This document shows positions 3,311 through 13,941 of a stretch of DNA of 15,694 nt, in pieces. The DNA comes from an uncultured delta proteobacterium (GTDB lineage Bacteria > Desulfobacterota > Binatia > UBA9968). The stretch spans positions 1 to 15,694 of the forward strand of contig CAVWLW010000060.1 of NCBI GenBank assembly GCA_963755715.1, written 5' to 3'. The notes beneath the pieces were generated by a model, which worked only from the letters and a program-made list of their open reading frames with translations, ran no database searches and was not told the origin of the DNA. Position numbers and translations under genes: made by a program. Numbering within the stretch: the first letter of the stretch is position 1; each line of letters starts with the position of its first letter.

Positions 3311-4748
3311 TCAAGAGCGATGGGCGACATTGCGCTTTATATATTGCCCGACGGAAGCGTCGGTAACTTTCGCGCGTGGTTCGTTCTCCGGCCATTCCAT
3401 GACGACGTTGCCGCGAACCAGTGTCATGACCGGCCAGCCGGTGACTTCCCAGCCTTCGTAGATCGACCACGGCGTTATCGTGTGGAGAAGCTCCTTGGTG
3501 ATTTTCGCGCGCCGTTTCAAGTCGACGACGACTAAGTCGGCGTCGGCGCCGGGGAGGATCGCGCCTTTCTTCGGGTAAAGTCCGAAGATCCGCGCCGGAT
3601 TTTCACTGGCGACCTGGGCAAGCCGTTCTATCGTGATACGCCCCTTGTTCACGCCTTCGCTCAGCATCATCGGCAACATCCCCTCGATCCGCGAGGGAAA
3701 GCCGCTGATGGTGGTCCAGACATTGCCGGTTTCCATCGATTCGCGGGTTCTCGTGTGCGCGACGTGGTCGCTGCCGATGCAATCGATCGCGCCTGAAGCG
3801 AGCGCGTGCCACAGCGTCTCGTGCGTTGCGCGATCGCGCAGCGGCACGTTGATCTTCCACGCGTCCTTGTGCAGGACGAGATAGTGCGTGCCGATTTCGC
3901 TATAGACCGTCAGCCCTTCGGCTTTTGCCTTTTCGATTTCCGCAATTGTTTCTCGGGTCGTCACATGAACGATATAGATCGGACAGCCCGCGACCCTGGC
4001 ATAATAAAGGTAGGTTCTCGCATGCCCCGCTTCGGTGAACGCCGGCGAGCGATCATCCCAAGCGCCCATGTCCGTGCGACCCGCCGCCATCAGACGTTCT
4101 TGGAGGACGCGGGCAATCTCCCAGTTCTCGCAGTGGAGCAGCGCGATGGCCGGCGCGCCGAGCTTGGCGACGGCATCGAAGACGGCGTAAATGCTGCCGT
4201 CGTCAAACGAGTACGCCGGCCAGGAAGATTTCCACGGCCCCTGCATTTGCAAGTGCAATTTAAACGAACTGATCCCGTGTTCCTTGGCCAAGTACGGAAT
4301 CTCTGCCCACATGCTCGTCGGTGCCGAGGATCGGCGTCAGAAAAAAGTCTATTGCCGCGGCGCGCGACGCTTCATAATAGAGCGGCATCGCCCGAGTGAA
4401 TGACGGGATGTCCGCCGGTCCCTTGACCTTCTCCGCGCCGCCCGTGATCGCGAGGCTGACGAGCTGCATTCCCCAGGTGGTCACCCCGGCCGCCGCTGCC
4501 GCGCGGGTCTCGGAATAGAAATCATCGGCGAGCGGACGATGGCTGCCCAAATGGCACTCCGGGTCGATGACGCCAGGTAGAAGATAATTGCCGGCGAGAT
4601 CGATTTCACGCTTCGCGGCCGGCAGAAACGCGTCGCCGCCCACGGCGGCGATCTTGCCGTCGAGAATCGCGACACCGCCTTCGATGGTGCCGGCTGGCGT
4701 GACGATCAAGCCGTTTTTAAAAACAATGTCCGCAGGGTTAGTCGCCAT
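3311..4748 (-). CDS. Cyclic amidohydrolase (dihydroorotase/allantoinase/hydantoinase family), one apparent frameshift
   Basis: PGVIDPECH, AAAAAGVTT, SSFKL (carbamylated-Lys position), LHCEN, IVHVTT, IGSDH, NPARIFGLYPKKG and GADADLVV. Removing one C at 4306-4308 joins the two ORFs into ~478 aa. Confidence 0.85.
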
Positions 4749-4776
4749 GTTTGAATCCGCCAGATCTTTCGTTAGC

Positions 4777-5763
4777 TTACTTTCTTGCTTCCGCCAGATA
4801 GCTCAAGTCGATTACGCCGTCCACCGGCGGGGGAGTCTTTTGCAAGCCGAAGTCTTTCCAGTTCTCCGCGACTTTGCGCGCGCCTTGCACGTCAATGCCG
4901 CCGTCCCGCGGTATGGTTTTTTGGGTTTTCATATACAGCGCGTAAGTTTTTTCGGCTTCGTCTTTCTCGGCTTTGGTGCGATCGGCCAGCGCGCGCACCG
5001 CGGCCTCCTTGTTTTTCGGGTCGTAGAAAAACTCGCAGGCTTTTACGTAGGCGCGCAGAAAGCGCACCACAAGGGGGCGGTTTTTTTGCGCCCAGTCGCG
5101 GCGCGCGCCGGTAATCGTATACTGAAAGTTGTCGACATAGTCGGTCGAGAGTCCGAGCGAGCTGAAGCCGGACGCAAGCGCGATGAAATCCGAAGGCTGG
5201 TTGATCAGCGCGCCTGCCACGCCTCGGTTTTGCACAGCGGCCAAACGCTGGGGCGCGCCGCCGAGGCCGATCATTTCATAGTCATTGGGCGCGAGGCCGT
5301 TAGCGGCCAACATCCGCGTGAGAATATAATTCAGCGGGTCCGTCGGCCCCGTTATCGCCAGCCGTTTTCCCTTTAAGTCGGCGTAGCTCTTGATGGACGA
5401 ATGCACGATCAAGGTGTAGATCGGCACCGTAGAGTCGCCGCCGATCACGATGAGATCGGCGCCGGCCGAGTTGGCGGCGAGCAGGTTCACCAAATTCATT
5501 TGAGCGATATCCGTCGAACCGGCAACCAGCGCTTGCGTGGTGGCGGTGGTGTTGCCGCCGATGACCCGCTTGAAGTCGATGCCTTCCCTTTGGAAAAAAC
5601 CTTCCTGCTCGGCGATCAAGAAAGGCCAAGTGGAAGCGGTCAGGACGATGTTGCCGTAATTGATCGGTGTGAGTTTCGGATTTTGCTGCGCTTGAGTTCG
5701 ATTGGTAACGATCAGGAGCAGAAGCAGCGTAATCCAAGCACGGAGCCTAAGAGCGCAATGCAT
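4777..5763 (-). CDS. NMT1/THI5/TauA-like ABC substrate-binding protein
   Basis: Signal peptide; IAEQEGFFQREGI and SIKSYADLKGKRLAI; GAGGAG RBS upstream. Confidence 0.88.
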   Translation of the reverse strand: MHCALRLRAWITLLLLLIVTNRTQAQQNPKLTPINYGNIVLTASTWPFLIAEQEGFFQREGIDFKRVIGGNTTATTQALVAGSTDIAQMNLVNLLAANSAGADLIVIGGDSTVPIYTLIVHSSIKSYADLKGKRLAITGPTDPLNYILTRMLAANGLAPNDYEMIGLGGAPQRLAAVQNRGVAGALINQPSDFIALASGFSSLGLSTDYVDNFQYTITGARRDWAQKNRPLVVRFLRAYVKACEFFYDPKNKEAAVRALADRTKAEKDEAEKTYALYMKTQKTIPRDGGIDVQGARKVAENWKDFGLQKTPPPVDGVIDLSYLAEARK

Positions 5764-8197: not shown

Positions 8198-8607
8198 ATG
8201 GCAACTCGTTGGTTATTTAAAACGGAACCGTAGGTTTATTCGTATCAGCAACTGGAAAAAGACAAAAGACCATGTGGGACGGCGTGGCGAACAATCTCGC
8301 GCTCAAAAATGTAAAAGACATCAAAAAAGGCGAGCAGATTTTCATTTACCATACCGGCGACGAGAAAGCCGGCGGTCGGCGTGGCCGCGCGCTCGGCGGC
8401 GCATATCCGGATCCGGAAAAGGAAGATCCCAAGCTGCTGGTCGTCGACATCGAAGCGGTACAGGCCTTGGCCAAGCCGGTGACCTTGGCGACAGTCAAAG
8501 CAGATCAAAAGCTCGCCAACTTCGATCTCGTGCGCAACTCGCGCCTGTCGATCATGAAGGTAACCGACGAGCAGTGGGAGATCATGGAAGGAATGGCGCG
8601 ACGATAG
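8198..8607 (+). CDS. EVE domain protein (PUA-like), interrupted by an in-frame TAG and indels
   Basis: GAGGAGGAG RBS then MATRWLFKTEP*VYSYQQLEKDK, joined by a one-base shift in an A-run to MWDGVANNLALKN...IYHTGDEK...AYPDP...LVRNSRLSIMKV. WLxKxEP, WDGV and RLS are EVE hallmarks. ~136 aa if repaired. Confidence 0.85.
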
Positions 8608-8722: not shown

Positions 8723-10609
8723 CTATCGATTGCGACTGGGCTTTGCTTGATAAACCATCACACGGTCACGCCCGGCATTTTTCGCTGCATACAAGGCCGT
8801 GTCGGCTGCGCGCAGTAATTGGCTTGGGTTGGGGGCAGGATCCTCCGCCTGCGCAACGCCGGCCGATACGGTTATCGCGCGGAGCTGTTGCTCGCCATGG
8901 GGAATCTGCAGTTCCTTGATCTGGGCGCGGATCTGTTCCATGCGCTGCTTGGCATCGGCTGCGGATGAATCGGGCAGAACCAAAACGAACTCCTCCCCGC
9001 CGTAGCGGCATGAGATATCGCTCTTACGTAATTTTCCCAGCAGCAGTCGTCCCAACTCGCGCAACAGCGAGTCACCGGCATCGTGACCGTAAGTATCGTT
9101 GAAGCGTTTGAAATTATCTAAATCGAGCATCGCGACACAGAGCGGGGAATGGGCGCGCTGGGCACGATGCAGCTCGCGCGGCAAAGTTTCTTCCAAATAG
9201 CGCCGATTAAATAACCCGGTCAGCGGATCGTGAATCGCCTCCGCGCGTAGTTCCTCGCGGAGCTTCAAATTGGACAAGGATAACTTGATGGCTTCGCTCA
9301 CCGTCACAGCCAATTGTAGCTGGCTGACCTGATGGTGACTCCTCTTGGCGGGAGCGCCGACGAGACAAAACACTCCCAATGTCTCGCCTTGCACGGTCAA
9401 CGGCACGCACAGGTAGCTAGTCTCCGGTTGGCTGACAAAATGACGGCACAACAAGCCAGCCTGGGGATCGGTGACTTCATGCAGTTGACCCCGGCGCAGC
9501 GCCCAGCAATCCTCCAGTGAAAAGATCGGCTGGCCGAGCGGCCGCTCGCCCCAGCGCGCAACCATCTCAAGATATTGACCCGACGCATGCAAAACTGCCA
9601 GGCATCCGGTCTGCCCGGCAAAGAGCTCGCCGGCGGCCAGGCCAACTACCTTATACGCTTCGTCTTGAGCGGTGCAGCTCTGCAGGAGATCGTCCATGCT
9701 GATGAGCGCCTGCATTTCGCTTTCACGCCGTTGGAGTTCAGCGACCAACGCCATCAGCTCCTCATTGGTTTTCCGTGCGCTTTCCGTTGCCTGTTTGGGT
9801 GCCGTGACGTCGCGCACAACGGCAATCACCATGCTGCCGCTCTCCGTAGTCATCGGACTCAGCATAATGTCTACAGGGAATTCACTCTTATCTTTGCGCT
9901 GACCGAACAGTTCCAAACCGACTCCCATAGGTCGCATGCGCGGATCGGCGATGTAGCCGGTGATGTGTTTGACGTGCCGTTCTCTAAATCGCTCGGGCAT
10001 TAAGAACTCCACAGGTTTGTCCTGCAGCTCGTTGCGGCTGTAGCCGAAAATAGCCTCGACCTGGGCATTCATCTGGGTAATTCTTCCGTGACGGTCGATC
10101 ACCGCGATAGCGTCGGGAAACGATTCATAGATCCCTCTGGCGATTTCCGCGAATCTAACGTCGGTGAGATCCCGGGTGATCAGCGAAAAACCCGTCAGTG
10201 TTCCTTTTGCGCGCCGCATTGCGGTGATGAGCACATTGGCAAAAAAGCGCGAGCCGTCTTTCCGGACCCGCCAGGTCTGTTCTTCATAGCGACCGTGGGC
10301 CCCTGCCGTCTTGAGGACAAACTCCGGCCGGCGGCGCTGAATCTCCTCGGCGGAATAAAAGCACGAGAAGGGTTTGCCGAAAATCTCATCTTGCCGATAA
10401 CCCGTAAGCCGCTCGGCGCCAATGTTCCAACTAGCCACGCGTCCACTCGGATCGAGCATGCAGATGGCGTAGTCCTTGGCGTTTTCGATAAGAAGGCGGA
10501 CGGGGTCATCAGCACCGTCCGCTGTTGATTTTGCCCGCCTCGGCAAAATTGGCGGGGCTGGCGCTTTCTTTACGCCTTTGGCCGCTGGCTTTTTCTTCGG
10601 TGGCTTCAC
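8723..10609 (-). CDS. Cytoplasmic diguanylate cyclase, PAS-PAS-GAF-GGDEF
   Basis: Two PAS/PAC segments (WNIGAERLTGY...RKDGSRF; NAQVEAIFGY...RKDKSEFPV), a GAF-like segment (DCWALRRG, YLCVPL), DPLTGLFNRR, FKRFNDTYGHDAGD, RKSD I-site and RYGGEEF. Confidence 0.93.
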   Translation of the reverse strand: MKPPKKKPAAKGVKKAPAPPILPRRAKSTADGADDPVRLLIENAKDYAICMLDPSGRVASWNIGAERLTGYRQDEIFGKPFSCFYSAEEIQRRRPEFVLKTAGAHGRYEEQTWRVRKDGSRFFANVLITAMRRAKGTLTGFSLITRDLTDVRFAEIARGIYESFPDAIAVIDRHGRITQMNAQVEAIFGYSRNELQDKPVEFLMPERFRERHVKHITGYIADPRMRPMGVGLELFGQRKDKSEFPVDIMLSPMTTESGSMVIAVVRDVTAPKQATESARKTNEELMALVAELQRRESEMQALISMDDLLQSCTAQDEAYKVVGLAAGELFAGQTGCLAVLHASGQYLEMVARWGERPLGQPIFSLEDCWALRRGQLHEVTDPQAGLLCRHFVSQPETSYLCVPLTVQGETLGVFCLVGAPAKRSHHQVSQLQLAVTVSEAIKLSLSNLKLREELRAEAIHDPLTGLFNRRYLEETLPRELHRAQRAHSPLCVAMLDLDNFKRFNDTYGHDAGDSLLRELGRLLLGKLRKSDISCRYGGEEFVLVLPDSSAADAKQRMEQIRAQIKELQIPHGEQQLRAITVSAGVAQAEDPAPNPSQLLRAADTALYAAKNAGRDRVMVYQAKPSRNR

Positions 10610-10883
10610 GTCCGGCTTTCTACTGCATCCAGTCGATCGAAAAGAACACGCTGCTGGAGGCTAATCCAGTTGCGCTCTATCGCCTGAGAAATCAAGGGCT
10701 GGAATGGCTCGCCCAAGCAATCTGAACGAGTCTGGGATGATTGCGACATGAGTTGATTTTTTCACACGCGTGGGCGGCGCGCTGGAATCCTATTCGAGGC
10801 CAACCCGCTCGTTAACGCTTTTATCAGAAGACCGTTCAGTTTCCGAGTACTGATTTAAAGAATCGGCAGGCAATCTAAGCGGC

Positions 10884-10944
10884 TTGAACGAAGAGAGTAA
10901 TCTGGGATAACTTTGAACGGTAGCAAGTAAAACAGGGAATAACT
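10884..10944 (+). repeat. Imperfect tandem repeat upstream of the His-rich methyltransferase (possible operator/promoter)
   Basis: TTGAACG-AAGAGAGTAATCTGGG-ATAACT followed directly by TTGAACG-GTAGCAAGTAAAACAGGGA-ATAACT. Confidence 0.5.
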
Positions 10945-10968
10945 CTCAAAGAATAGGAAAACAGGAAA

Positions 10969-12029
10969 ATGGCGGACGAACACAAACACGAGCACAAAGG
11001 CGAGCACGCGCACAATCACGACCAAGATCATGGCCACGAGCACGGTGATTCTCACGGGCATGAGCACGAACACACGCACGCGCCCGATCACGGTCATTCG
11101 CACGATCGCGAGCACCAACACAGTCACGACCACGATCACGAGCACGGACCATCCGCATTCCCATGGTCACGAACACGGGCACGGCCATTCCGATCACGAG
11201 CACGAACACGGCTCCTCCCACGGTCACGGCCACGACCACAAGACGCGCTTTCACGATCCGGCGCACGCCGCCGACTTCGACCGGCGCGGGTTGTCCGGTA
11301 TCCGCAGCTTCCCTGACGGACAAATTGATCGAAATGCTCACGCTCAAGGGCGAGGAGTTGGTGCTCGACGTCGCCACCGGCACCGGACGGGTGGCCCGGC
11401 CGCTGTCCAAGCAGATCAAAGGCGGGAAAATCATCGGCGTCGACCAGGCCCAGGCGATGCTCGACGTCGGCCATCACCATGAGGAACCGATTCCAAGCTA
11501 TCTGCAGAGCGCCGGCGAGGCCGATAAGCTGCCGTTCAAGACCAACACGTTCGATCGGGCGTTTGTCTCCTTCAGCCTGCATCATTTCGGCAATGCCGCC
11601 GGCGTGGTGGGCGAGGTGCTGCGCGTGCTCAAGAACAGCGGCCGCTTCGTCGTGCTCGATCCGATCATCGAGGAAGCCAAGGACGCCATCGATATCGCGC
11701 TCGAAACCAAGATCAACCAAGTGTTTCGCCGCACCCACGGCGAAGACTTTCGCTTTCACACCTCGAACAGCATTCAGCGTTTGCTGACCAAAGCCGGTTA
11801 CCGCGTGCCGCGCAGCAACGTTCTTTCTTATTCTTTCAATCAGGAAGGCATGGACGGCATTCCCACCGGACAACACTGGCTCGAAGCCGCGCTGGAGTTG
11901 GAAAAGGAAGCGCCGGAGCTGGCCGAGCGCATGAAGAAAAACTATTTCACCTGGCACTCGCACGGCGATCATGCCCACGTGAAGGGAAGTTTTTCCTTCG
12001 CGCTGATCACGGGCGTGAAGCCGGCCTAA
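10969..12029 (+). CDS. Class I SAM-dependent methyltransferase with long His-rich N-terminal extension (two apparent +1 indels)
   Basis: AGGA RBS. The His-rich frame continues across a shift at ~11146, and a second shift at ~11306-11310 leads into VLDVATGTG (motif I), IGVD, LPFKTNTFD, SLHHF and RVLKNSG. ~352 aa if repaired. Confidence 0.82.
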
Positions 12030-12044
12030 AGATTATATGGATTC

Positions 12045-12070
12045 GTAGGGGCGCAGCATGCTGCGCCCCT
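12045..12070 (+). repeat. GTAG-type REP palindrome GTAGGGGCGCAGCATGCTGCGCCCCT
   Basis: Perfect 24-bp palindrome at 12047-12070, with GTAG at the 5' end. Confidence 0.75.
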
Positions 12071-12091
12071 GTCTGATAGGAGCGATCGATC

Positions 12092-12352
12092 TTGAAGAAA
12101 GCCGATTTCCGAACCTTTTACCGCGATGCCCACGCCGTCGAATGTCTCACCGAGCGCGAGAAGATGCTCATCGGTCTCACCGTCGCGATGATGCGGCTCT
12201 GCGATCCATGAGTTGACCGGCGCCTTGCGGACGCAAGGAAAGCGGGGATGACGGAAGAAGAATTGGAGGCTGCGGTCGATGTGATCGCCGCGGTCGATGC
12301 CGGGGTGCTGCAATCGTTGAATCAGCGCATCAAGCAGAGGAACAAGACATAA
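12092..12352 (+). CDS. Putative selenoprotein: AhpD/carboxymuconolactone decarboxylase family, CxxU (Sec40 at TGA 12209-12211)
   Basis: AGGAG RBS and TTG start; MKKADFRTFYRDAHAVECLTEREKMLIGLTVAMMRLCDP-U-VDRRLADARKAGMTEEELEAAVDVIAAVDAGVLQSLNQRIKQRNKT. CMD-like pattern on both sides of the TGA, a SECIS-like hairpin, and the TGA conserved in the second copy. Confidence 0.85.
12212..12247 (+). promoter_or_regulatory. Bacterial SECIS-like hairpin
   Basis: Stem CCTTGC/GCAAGG (12223-12238) with apical loop GGAC starting 17 nt after the UGA. A G at the start of a small loop fits the bacterial SECIS consensus. Confidence 0.7.
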
Positions 12353-12488
12353 ACTCTGAAGTGCCGAGGTACAGTACACATCGGAACTCAGATATGAAGA
12401 AAGGGCATCGTAAGGACGACGAAATGGGCGATCATTCTCCGTTTATTAGCGGTTATGCCTGAATACTCGATTCTGCTAAAAGACAGTC

Positions 12489-12749
12489 ATGCCGATTATT
12501 TCAACGTTTTTCGGAATCATTATCCGAATGTATTTCGGAGATCACAATCCTCCGCATTTCCATGTCGAGTTTCAGGGCGAGAAGGCGACTTTCAATTTTG
12601 ACGGTCAACTTGTGAATGGAAATATTTCTTCCGGGACGGCTCGGAAACTGGTGCGTGATTGGGCTCGTCGTCATAGACTTGAGCTCATGATAAATTGGAG
12701 AAACGTTGAGAGGGGACGCCCGCTCAATCGAATCGAGCCATTGGAGTAA
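12489..12749 (+). CDS. DUF4160 domain protein (putative toxin of a DUF4160/DUF2442 TA-like pair)
   Basis: MPIISTFFGIIIRMYFGDHNPPHFH...LVRDWA...ELMINW...IEPLE, the typical family pattern. Confidence 0.9.
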   Translation: MPIISTFFGIIIRMYFGDHNPPHFHVEFQGEKATFNFDGQLVNGNISSGTARKLVRDWARRHRLELMINWRNVERGRPLNRIEPLE

Positions 12750-12753
12750 TTTT

Positions 12754-13050
12754 ATGAGTTATCTGCCGCAAGTAATCGAAGCGCGTCATATAAGCGGATT
12801 TATTGTTTCAGCTCGCTTCGATGATGGAACTGAGAAGCGCATCGATGTTTCTCAATGGTTCAAGGGCCCGGTGTTCGAACCTCTCAAGGATCTGAAGCTT
12901 TTTAAGAAATTTTTTATCGAAGCGGGAACACTCGCTTGGCCGAACGGTGTCGATATCGCTCCTGAGGCGCTGTACGCTGCGCGTGACTCGATAGGCAAGA
13001 AGCATAACAAAAGGACGGAGCGAACGCGGAAAACACGTCGCTCATCCTAA
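12754..13050 (+). CDS. DUF2442 domain protein (putative antitoxin)
   Basis: GGAG RBS and ATG at 12754; FDDGTEK, GPVFEPLKD and TLAWPNGVDIAPEALY. The C-terminal tail runs through the attC. Confidence 0.9.
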   Translation: MSYLPQVIEARHISGFIVSARFDDGTEKRIDVSQWFKGPVFEPLKDLKLFKKFFIEAGTLAWPNGVDIAPEALYAARDSIGKKHNKRTERTRKTRRSS

Positions 13051-13054: not shown

Positions 13055-13091
13055 CGCCGCGACTCTCGTTCGCGCGTCTCGGAATTGCTCA

Positions 13092-13295
13092 ACCGAACAG
13101 GAAAAGATGCTCATCGGTCTCACCGTTGCGATGATGCGGCTCTGCGATCCATGAGTGGATCGGCGCCTTGCGGACGCAAGGAAAGCGGGGATGACGGAAG
13201 AAGAGCTTGATGCAGCAATAGATGTGATCGCCGCGGTAGACGCGGGAGTCTTGCAGTCGCTCAATCAGCGGATCAAGCAAAGAAGCAAGTCTTAG
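13092..13295 (+). pseudogene. Second, 5'-truncated copy of the CxxU AhpD/CMD gene (TGA 13152-13154; possible restart at ATG 13107)
   Basis: TEQEKMLIGLTVAMMRLCDP-U-VDRRLADARKAGMTEEELDAAIDVIAAVDAGVLQSLNQRIKQRSKS. It lacks a recognisable equivalent of the first ~17 codons and RBS of copy 1. Confidence 0.75.
13155..13190 (+). promoter_or_regulatory. SECIS-like hairpin, copy 2
   Basis: CCTTGC-GGAC-GCAAGG at 13166-13181, identical to copy 1. Confidence 0.65.
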
Positions 13296-13378: not shown

Positions 13379-13695
13379 CCACCCCATTTGAATCTAGGGT
13401 ATCCTTCCGCACTGTTGTGAACGTGGGAAAGGCGAGCAGAATCGATTAAGAGTTTGGATGCGGCGCGATCGCGGCAGCGGACGCGAGCGTTGCAATCACA
13501 GTAGAGGGATCGTGATTCGACGCGCAAAATACGAGATGGCGGGTATCGAATATTTTGGAGTGCCCGGAATAACGAAGGAGTGCCGAGTTGCCGTCTTAGG
13601 ATTGCTGCAGTACGGGAACTGCGTAACAAAGGTGCGCATATTGTCCTCGGCTCAGGAACATGGACTCTTGCTCACGGTCAATGCGGGTGACCTGA

Positions 13696-13941
13696 TTGCT
13701 GTCAAATCTGGATTTGCCTCCAAGTGCCCACAGCGCCGTGCCACCGTTTAAACAGGCTCTAAAAAAAGACGGAATTCCCTTTACGTCGTTCGAGGTAGAC
13801 AACATCGAACGAGAGTTTAATCGGCTTCAATCGCTGAACGTCGAGTTCACTCAAAAACCGACGCCAGCAGGCGAAGTCATCATTGCCGTGTTTGATGATA
13901 CGTGCGGAAACCTTATCCAAATCATGCAACGCGTCGCGTAA
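13696..13941 (+). pseudogene. VOC/glyoxalase/bleomycin-resistance family gene, C-terminal part only
   Basis: PFKQALKKDGIPFTSFEVDN and IAVFDDTCGNLIQI are characteristic. Similarity starts near 13720, and I found no N-terminal half in the upstream frames. Confidence 0.75.

Follow-up and report, generated by a model that had tools for sequence, protein, structure and literature searches.

What kind of system, if any, is formed by a methyltransferase (MT) gene with a histidine-rich N-terminal arm and the small selenoprotein gene that starts 62 nt behind it? Both are found on the forward strand of contig CAVWLW010000060.1 (C60) in the assembly GCA_963755715.1 (G000; 7.4 Mb in 76 contigs) of an uncultured delta proteobacterium, and the window analyzed here is this entire contig, 15,694 bases long. 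The host is a member of an order of soil bacteria that have not been cultured; public relatives carry the label Candidatus Binatia or “delta proteobacterium.” The original prediction, made from the sequence alone, had proposed the pair as a candidate metal- or metalloid-handling operon, in which an element would be captured, reduced, and methylated, or else as a metal-regulated methylation system for a cofactor or small molecule. We found that the two are the second and third genes of a lineage-specific block, EVE-MT-AhpD(Sec), where Sec stands for selenocysteine. The overall picture that we favor, and that we consider probable although far from assured, is that of a lineage block comprising an EVE-domain gene, a Cys-free MT with a poly-His arm, and a genuine CxxU selenoprotein, in which the coupling of the last two is facultative. 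In the window, the block comprises the following features (SAM, S-adenosylmethionine; REP, repetitive extragenic palindromic; SECIS, selenocysteine insertion sequence).

8198..8601, forward strand: EVE-domain gene, first in the block and conserved (located by tblastn using the intact EVE of relative locus L014)
10969..11305, forward strand: poly-His (H/D/E/G-rich) N-terminal arm and FHDPxHA motif of the MT, in two frames, with 1-nt shifts at about 11147 and about 11305
11307..12029, forward strand: class I SAM-dependent MT domain, Cys-free, 240 residues, with stop TAA at 12027 to 12029
12047..12070, no strand: REP-like perfect palindrome of 24 nt in the 62-nt spacer (from the sequence and its genome copies)
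12078..12082, forward strand: AGGAG Shine-Dalgarno-like motif, 9 nt ahead of the TTG start (read from the sequence)
12092..12352, forward strand: AhpD/CMD-like selenoprotein gene of 86 codons, with start TTG at 12092, TGA (Sec40) at 12209 to 12211, and TAA at 12350 to 12352
12223..12238, forward strand: SECIS-like hairpin CCUUGC-GGAC-GCAAGG, beginning 12 nt past the UGA

The selenoprotein is considered first. Its 86-residue product scored above the threshold of Pfam CMD (PF02627; 40.7 bits versus a cut-off of 23), and the CxxU redox center noticed in the original prediction was confirmed as C37-D-P-U40, the sequence around the TGA being LCDPUVDRRLADARKAG. When the 25 close-relative loci were searched by tblastn, 22 had the gene with its TGA at that codon, the CxxC position, the copies in L030 and L033 being damaged; as for the remaining three, the contigs of L020 and L031 end just past the MT, and L023 has no such gene. 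At the level of the order, 77 of 123 genomes matched the selenoprotein, with one TGA in every full-length match, and in the 30 genes that we aligned, it was always at codon 40. Cys homologues of the same length (P0280 to P0287, 87 to 93% identity) have Cys at the Sec position, and Cys18 and His14 are invariant, as are Cys37 and Sec40. The SECIS-like hairpin, with a 6-bp stem and the loop GGAC, is contained in the predicted minimum-free-energy fold. Across its codons 44 to 50, third positions were identical in 29 to 30 of the 30 genes, versus 10 to 24 in flanking degenerate codons, and Arg44, Leu45, Ala46, and Ala48 are each written with a single codon, while the flanking degenerate codons use four to nine. 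The genome also encodes the Sec machinery, with matches above the cut-offs for selA (617 bits), selB (416 bits), tRNA-Sec (76.7 bits), and selD, the last in two frames (213 and 155 bits) and with a TGA of its own. Because the TGA is conserved, Cys homologues exist, the third positions of the hairpin are invariant, and selA, selB, selD, and tRNA-Sec are all present, we conclude, judging from sequence, that the gene codes for a genuine selenoprotein, its UGA being recoded via the predicted hairpin 12 nt downstream. Two results speak against the hairpin: folding of the region was not significantly better than that of shuffled sequences (z = −1.08), and the stem displayed invariance only, without covariation.

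Public gene calls truncate this protein at the UGA, so that most entries are pieces of 47 to 80 residues and the annotation of the family is wrong across an abundant soil-bacterial group as a whole. A search for longer (fused) AhpD forms returned four proteins, apparently frame-shifted or chimeric calls, and does not address natural fusions, given that database proteins stop at the UGA. Farther homologues (P0292 to P0296, 67 to 70% identity) are recorded with CQPW or CQPR, W or R taking the place of Sec, which could be either a real substitution or the result of a gene caller reading TGA under another code.

The second gene was studied along similar lines. Its MT domain scored 61.4 bits against Pfam Methyltransf_11 (PF08241), for which the threshold is 21.2, and the glycine-rich SAM motif LDVATGTGR is invariant or nearly so in the family, for which we found 952 homologues. 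All NCBIfam matches were below their cut-offs; the best, UbiE/MenG (TIGR01934; 76.3 versus 158.35), covered only the SAM-binding half, and the protein thus falls outside that family. With a profile of 23 family members, YcgJ (1xxl) and BH2331 (1vl5) came first among solved structures (E = 3e-27 and 9e-28, respectively). The same two were on top in Foldseek (target TM-scores of 0.76 and 0.81), followed by natural-product and phosphoethanolamine methyltransferases, and they share the C-terminal lid. However, identity to them is only 22 to 23%, and they have neither the His arm nor the N-terminal FHDxxHA motif. To our knowledge, neither the substrate nor the function of YcgJ and BH2331 has been established. 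In the AlphaFold model, the MT domain had pLDDT values of >90, and most of the arm was at <50. Diagnostic motifs of the family are FHDxxHAxEFDRR (N-terminal) and DQxGxxGIPxGxHW (C-terminal). Taken as a whole, profile and model comparisons indicate that the gene encodes a class I, Cys-free SAM methyltransferase of the YcgJ/BH2331-like, small-molecule type.

The length of the sequence preceding FHDP varies from almost nothing (arm-less forms) to ca. 20 to 30 residues in some genera and >100 in others. In a tree of 41 sequences, arm-less forms were found in all three families of the order, while the arm-bearing forms made up one clade (support, 100/99) within the window's family, in which the MT has acquired a poly-His tract of very variable length. 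There is no Cys in the 240 residues of the window's MT domain, nor in the intact 353-residue relative P0007, whose first 100 residues include 38 His. Binding of As(III) by ArsM relies on conserved cysteines, and ArsM-type binding is therefore excluded, in agreement with the statement in the original prediction that this MT is not ArsM-like.

In the window itself, the MT gene is not in one piece. The ATG at 10969 opens a frame beginning with MADEHKHEHKGEHAHNHDQDHGHEH that loses sense past about 11147; His-rich sequence resumes in a second frame at about 11150 and continues, via KTRFHDPAHAADFDRRGLSGIRS, up to about 11305; and a third frame, from 11307, provides the MT domain, with no stop in 240 codons. 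To obtain the poly-His MT from the window, one has to read through two +1 shifts; the original prediction did so without stating it. The closest database proteins (P0006, P0007, and P0009 among the intact ones) are 98 to 99% identical over the MT domain and comprise 350 to 354 residues, with the same arm read in a single frame, so near-identical intact versions of the gene exist in other samples. Besides, the MT is single-frame in 20 of the 25 close-relative loci, which come from public genome bins, and four of the five broken ones belong to one series of metagenome-assembled genomes (MAGs).

We aligned public contigs from four runs (three of DNA plus RNA run X15) to positions 10800 to 12450. 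One base was omitted at 11305, at full depth, in contigs of X1, X2, and X15, and one was omitted at 11147 in X2, the sole run covering that spot. All three DNA runs also had an extra C after 12434, an intergenic position, with respect to the window. Other genes of the assembly were affected as well: the amidohydrolase gene at 3323 to 4802 shifts frame near 4307, and selD, on another contig (G000:C3:71086-72013), was matched in two frames. Given that the public contigs lack the extra bases, that other genes are broken, and that most relatives are single-frame, the two breaks are very probably consensus errors of a poor short contig. Programmed +1 frameshifting at both breaks was rejected, as relatives and public contigs are simply without the extra bases.

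Alternatively, the MT could be a true pseudogene in the strain of the window, at a locus that is degenerating, EVE included, around an intact selenoprotein gene. There are two frameshifts inside 160 nt, the EVE gene has a stop and more shifts, and rpoB of the same assembly is intact, so that errors are not uniform over the genome. Nevertheless, near-identical contigs from three other runs do not have the extra bases, the three DNA runs contradict the window at the intergenic indel too, and the domain past the shifts is open over its whole length and almost identical to that of intact relatives. Together with the concentration of broken relatives in one MAG series, this makes decay an unlikely explanation, and we retain the reading of consensus errors. 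The region illustrates how frame breaks of a short, low-quality contig can look like biology.

Given that both genes are real, is their proximity maintained? We searched all 123 genomes of the order and compared positions, obtaining 90 hits for the MT domain, 77 for the selenoprotein, and 98 for the EVE protein; four unpublished genomes were left out of the counts of arrangements. Both genes were present in 68 published genomes, in 41 of which they are linked within 1.5 kb: 37 within 400 nt and 4 at 401 to 1,500 nt, relative loci with inserts in that size range having a PIN-domain gene or a metallo-β-lactamase (MBL)-fold gene there. The close pairs extend over ca. 17 genera of the window's family and genus g279 of the sister family and include arm-less MTs merely 46 to 50% identical to that of the window. 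Against a fixed partnership, the genes were unlinked in 27 of the 68, separated by ≥0.97 Mb of a single contig in 16 genomes and placed on different contigs in 11; 18 more genomes, 11 of them in genus g272, had only the MT, and 6 had only the selenoprotein. The genomes with unlinked genes were those of g280 (22/22) and g277/g278 and two ambiguous cases from the window's own family, G471 and G291, which have them on different contigs. The pairing is, as far as these genome comparisons indicate, conserved yet facultative. Adjacency in related genomes, on which the original prediction had made its operon depend, holds within the window's family, where both genes also share a strand, and fails in sister lineages.

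In genus g272 (L160 to L162), some genomes have a His-arm MT and others an arm-less one, in both cases beside EVE, and none of its 12 genomes has the selenoprotein gene.

The constant neighbour turned out to be EVE, a gene missed by the original prediction. Of 26 loci, 25 have an EVE open reading frame (ORF) ahead of the MT, and the intact one in L014 scored 128.6 bits against Pfam EVE. The window's own copy is damaged, with an in-frame stop and a locally garbled frame: tblastn matched 8198 to 8386 in one frame, with stops, and 8257 to 8601 in another. In the sister family f112 (g277 to g279; L095, L096, and L098), EVE and MT overlap or are ca. 90 to 100 nt apart. A different arrangement was seen in g280, where in all 27 genomes with both genes, the selenoprotein gene comes directly after EVE, with a gap of 37 to 77 nt and no MT between them (e.g., L084 to L087 and L090); the g280 MT is located elsewhere, with an MBL-fold gene directly behind it in the four loci examined (L091 to L093 and L097). 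An MBL-fold gene is also found directly 3′ of the MT in three loci of the window's family (L023, L025, and L034), either between MT and selenoprotein gene or in place of the latter. Both arrangements count against a dedicated MT-selenoprotein pair. Each pairwise combination of EVE, MT, and AhpD occurs somewhere in the order, a distribution that fits an ancestral EVE-MT-AhpD block broken in various ways and fits equally well genes that share a promoter region.

This leads to the most serious competitor of a partnership, which we place only a little short of an even proposition: synteny without partnership. The genes would be neighbours by descent or through a shared EVE promoter, the selenoprotein having a general antioxidant or disulfide-reducing role and the MT acting on an unrelated small-molecule substrate. 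The variety of arrangements is in its favor, since EVE-MT-AhpD, EVE-AhpD (as in g280), and EVE-MT with AhpD megabases away (G402 and G403) all occur, as are the 18 genomes with the MT alone. Among relatives, the selenoprotein is far better conserved than the MT (72 to 98% versus 43 to 90% identity), as expected of independent function. Along the same lines, a metagenome scan with a three-sequence MT alignment, which reached only a distant MT clade, gave 54 loci; one of them is of the window's clade, and in the other 53, EVE, AhpD, and MBL were all absent from the neighbourhood. On the other hand, the block persists despite poorly conserved flanks, no other ORF family being present in more than 15 of the 26 loci, and survives the insertion of PIN or MBL genes between MT and AhpD. 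Furthermore, AhpD domains of the CDPU type are fused to methyltransferases elsewhere (see below).

Another alternative is a nucleic acid modification module acting on RNA, in which EVE, as a reader of modified bases, would form the functional pair with the MT, sometimes joined by an RNase Z-like MBL protein, and the selenoprotein would be incidental. The overlapping or nearly abutting EVE and MT genes of f112, EVE-MT gaps of ≤510 nt for the majority of genomes in the window's family, and the MT-adjacent MBL gene, with its sub-threshold matches to RNase Z (120.7 bits versus a cut-off of 293) and GntH-like families, all point in this direction. However, the closest folds and sequence families of the MT are small-molecule methyltransferases, the MT of g280 has left EVE, and the MBL protein of L023 has an N-terminal hydrophobic segment that, by eye, resembles a signal peptide. 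The main text of a survey of EVE gene contexts (PMC7641849) likewise contains no mention of AhpD, carboxymuconolactone, selenocysteine, UbiE, or SAM-dependent methyltransferase. We consider this module very unlikely.

In order to put the pair into perspective, we compared it with described systems. Selenoprotein families of CxxU AhpD-like, CMD-like, and “distant AhpD” types, as well as MT/AhpD fusion selenoproteins, appear in a table of a 2026 review (PMC13188914), which credits MduS (methyltransferase domain-containing double selenoprotein, NF045649) to Haft & Tolstoy 2025. With the AhpD-like CxxU families, the window's protein shares the CMD/AhpD fold, Sec in place of the second Cys of CxxC, Cys homologues, and a hairpin after the UGA, but it has only 86 residues. 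At the position following the motif, it has Arg, where classical AhpD presumably has His. It was under every cut-off tried among the NCBIfam AhpD models (GSU3128, 27.8 bits of 110; TIGR04169, 38.7 of 120; ahpD_dom, 25.8 of 27.8). Its best NCBIfam matches, all far below their cut-offs, were MduS (40.1), ArsM/AhpD (38.7), and TIGR04169, the AhpD-like partner of arsenosugar radical-SAM enzymes (38.7).

MduS combines a SAM methyltransferase with an AhpD-type domain in which C-D-P-U recurs; identity between this domain of a genuine example and the window's selenoprotein is 39% over 67 residues. In contrast to the window, where two genes 62 nt apart contain one Sec, MduS is one polypeptide with two. 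The window's selenoprotein matched the MduS model in its AhpD part only, at 40.1 bits versus a cut-off of 380, and lies outside the family. The likeness between the MT domains is generic, limited to the SAM core at 19% identity, which weakens the parallel. Within the same phylum, MduS exceeded the cut-off in 4 of 401 genomes (one genuine example reached 620 bits, with two TGA codons), and no match at E ≤ 1e-20 was found in the window's genome. The pair thus resembles, in terms of sequence, a split MduS in the kinds of domains and not in their families. The ArsM/AhpD selenoprotein (NF041537) similarly joins a methyltransferase and AhpD(U), and both window proteins matched it weakly (32.5 and 38.7 bits), far from its cut-off of 510 and with an MT devoid of Cys. 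The original prediction had not recognized the pair as a described system, a statement that needs softening: CxxU AhpD-like selenoproteins and MT-AhpD fusions such as MduS and ArsM/AhpD are known already, although the pair from the window scores under the cut-offs of those models.

How might the two products act? The selenoprotein would be a thiol/selenol oxidoreductase, in which Sec40 would attack an oxidized or chalcogen- or metalloid-bearing substrate and Cys37 would resolve the selenenyl-sulfide, perhaps assisted by the invariant Cys18 and His14, while the His arm may bind a divalent metal. By analogy with what is presumed for the fused AhpD domain of MduS or ArsM/AhpD, the selenoprotein may serve the MT in the window's family; the CDPU AhpD domains fused to methyltransferases elsewhere argue for such a partnership, which we put forward tentatively and with some doubt. 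That the substrate is a metalloid or a chalcogen seems to us unlikely. We would assign a similarly low probability to the more elaborate possibility of a working two-gene “split MduS,” in which the MT would methylate Se, S, or metalloid species handed over from the Sec/Cys pair of its partner, the poly-His arm would tune metal dependence, and EVE would tie the module to modified nucleic acid or a nucleotide-derived signal. If true, it would be a genetically separable model for the uncharacterized selenoproteins of the MduS type. More generally, the pair may be regarded as a naturally split counterpart to the MT-AhpD fusion selenoproteins, for which we found no stated function, and provides two separable proteins for testing the partnership, with sister lineages in which the genes are uncoupled or one of them is lost as natural controls.

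The dedicated metal or metalloid module of the original prediction, in which the His arm captures, the selenoprotein reduces, and the MT methylates the element, has some points on its side: the His-rich arm itself, the resemblance of the selenoprotein to the AhpD domains of ArsM and arsenosugar enzymes, and the neighbourhood of a few relatives. Thus, a gene for a cation efflux protein of the CDF family, Cys-rich at its N terminus (MDDCC), lies 3′ of the block in 6 of 25 loci (L019, L022, L025, L026, L029, and L034), and a DtxR-like regulator was identified by eye in L023. However, the absence of Cys in the MT leaves no room for As(III) binding of the ArsM type, no metal or metalloid resistance gene was a conserved neighbour in the 25 relative loci, and a Pfam scan of the window detected no ars, mer, czc, or tellurite genes. 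Arm-less MTs are paired with AhpD (G404, G405, G510, G513, and G438), and G495, G497, and G451 have an MT with a short His arm but no AhpD. Arm, MT, and selenoprotein are therefore not co-inherited, which weakens capture, reduction, and methylation as a single unit; neither this unit nor a role in metal handling was borne out, and we rate the module as decidedly improbable. A lineage block with facultative coupling continues to be the description that we prefer.

The spacer between the two genes, from the MT stop at 12029 to the TTG at 12092, contains the palindrome described by the original prediction, a REP-type element whose 22-nt core has 7 exact copies in the genome, or 18 when ≤2 mismatches are allowed, on at least 10 contigs. 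L014, L015, L017, and L037 carry this element in their spacers and L021 a diverged variant of it; Rfam returned just two matches to small RNAs on the element, both sub-threshold. We found no promoter-like or terminator-like site between the MT and the selenoprotein gene; the REP hairpin in this gap, a strong one, would be at most an attenuator or RNA stabilizer. GGAG-type motifs precede the ATG, GTG, or TTG starts at the equivalent place in relatives. RNA-library contigs cover 10936 to 11086 and 11187 to 11338. No RNA contig bridging 12029 to 12092 was seen among the public-run contigs, a result that does not help the case for a shared transcript and yet is no evidence against co-transcription; coverage of the spacer by public-run contigs stems from other REP copies. 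Co-transcription of the two genes, each with its own ribosome-binding site, is in our estimation an evenly balanced matter.

Across L013 to L037, the spacer ranges from 52 to 323 nt and is a hot spot for differing small repeats, among them the window's REP palindrome, tandem repeats of the AGTCAGAA type, and GTTCCAAxC. In four loci, whole genes have been inserted there, with a PIN domain in L026 and L027.

Upstream of the MT, the original prediction had described a tandem operator-like repeat. The search for repeats in this region gave one feature.

10904..10968, forward strand: imperfect direct repeats 5′ of the MT start codon (repeat search)

These are 14-nt pairs located 29 to 32 nt apart, D2 at 10926 to 10939 and 10955 to 10968 (86% identity) and D3 at 10904 to 10917 and 10936 to 10949 (79%), which do not align across 17 upstream regions (the window plus 16 relatives). 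Weak and unconserved, they were rejected as an operator.

Two other features in the window lie outside the block or behind it.

8723..10609, reverse strand: PAS-PAS-GAF-GGDEF gene, between EVE and MT and outside the block (Pfam)
13082..13295, forward strand: shortened second copy of the selenoprotein gene (ca. codons 17 to 86), with TGA and hairpin kept, behind a DUF4160/DUF2442 pair

Among the 26 loci, a GGDEF gene on the opposite strand separates EVE and MT only in the window and three relatives (L015, L017, and L037), where, from the comparison of gene orders, it has been inserted. The shortened selenoprotein copy is 85% identical in DNA to the 3′ part of the full gene, reached 34.1 bits against Pfam CMD, and is separated from the full gene by the DUF4160 and DUF2442 genes (12489 to 12749 and ca. 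12755 to 13050). The DNA past it is syntenic with that found 3′ of the selenoprotein gene in L013, and additional partial copies were detected in L015, G481, G465, and G518. The DUF pair and the partial copy look like a cassette that was inserted into the gene toward its 3′ end and brought a replacement end with it. Finally, positions 13458 to 13941 may contain another frame break: the match to a glyoxalase family (13696 to 13941) is confined to the C-terminal half of the profile, and an overlapping ORF lies upstream in another frame.

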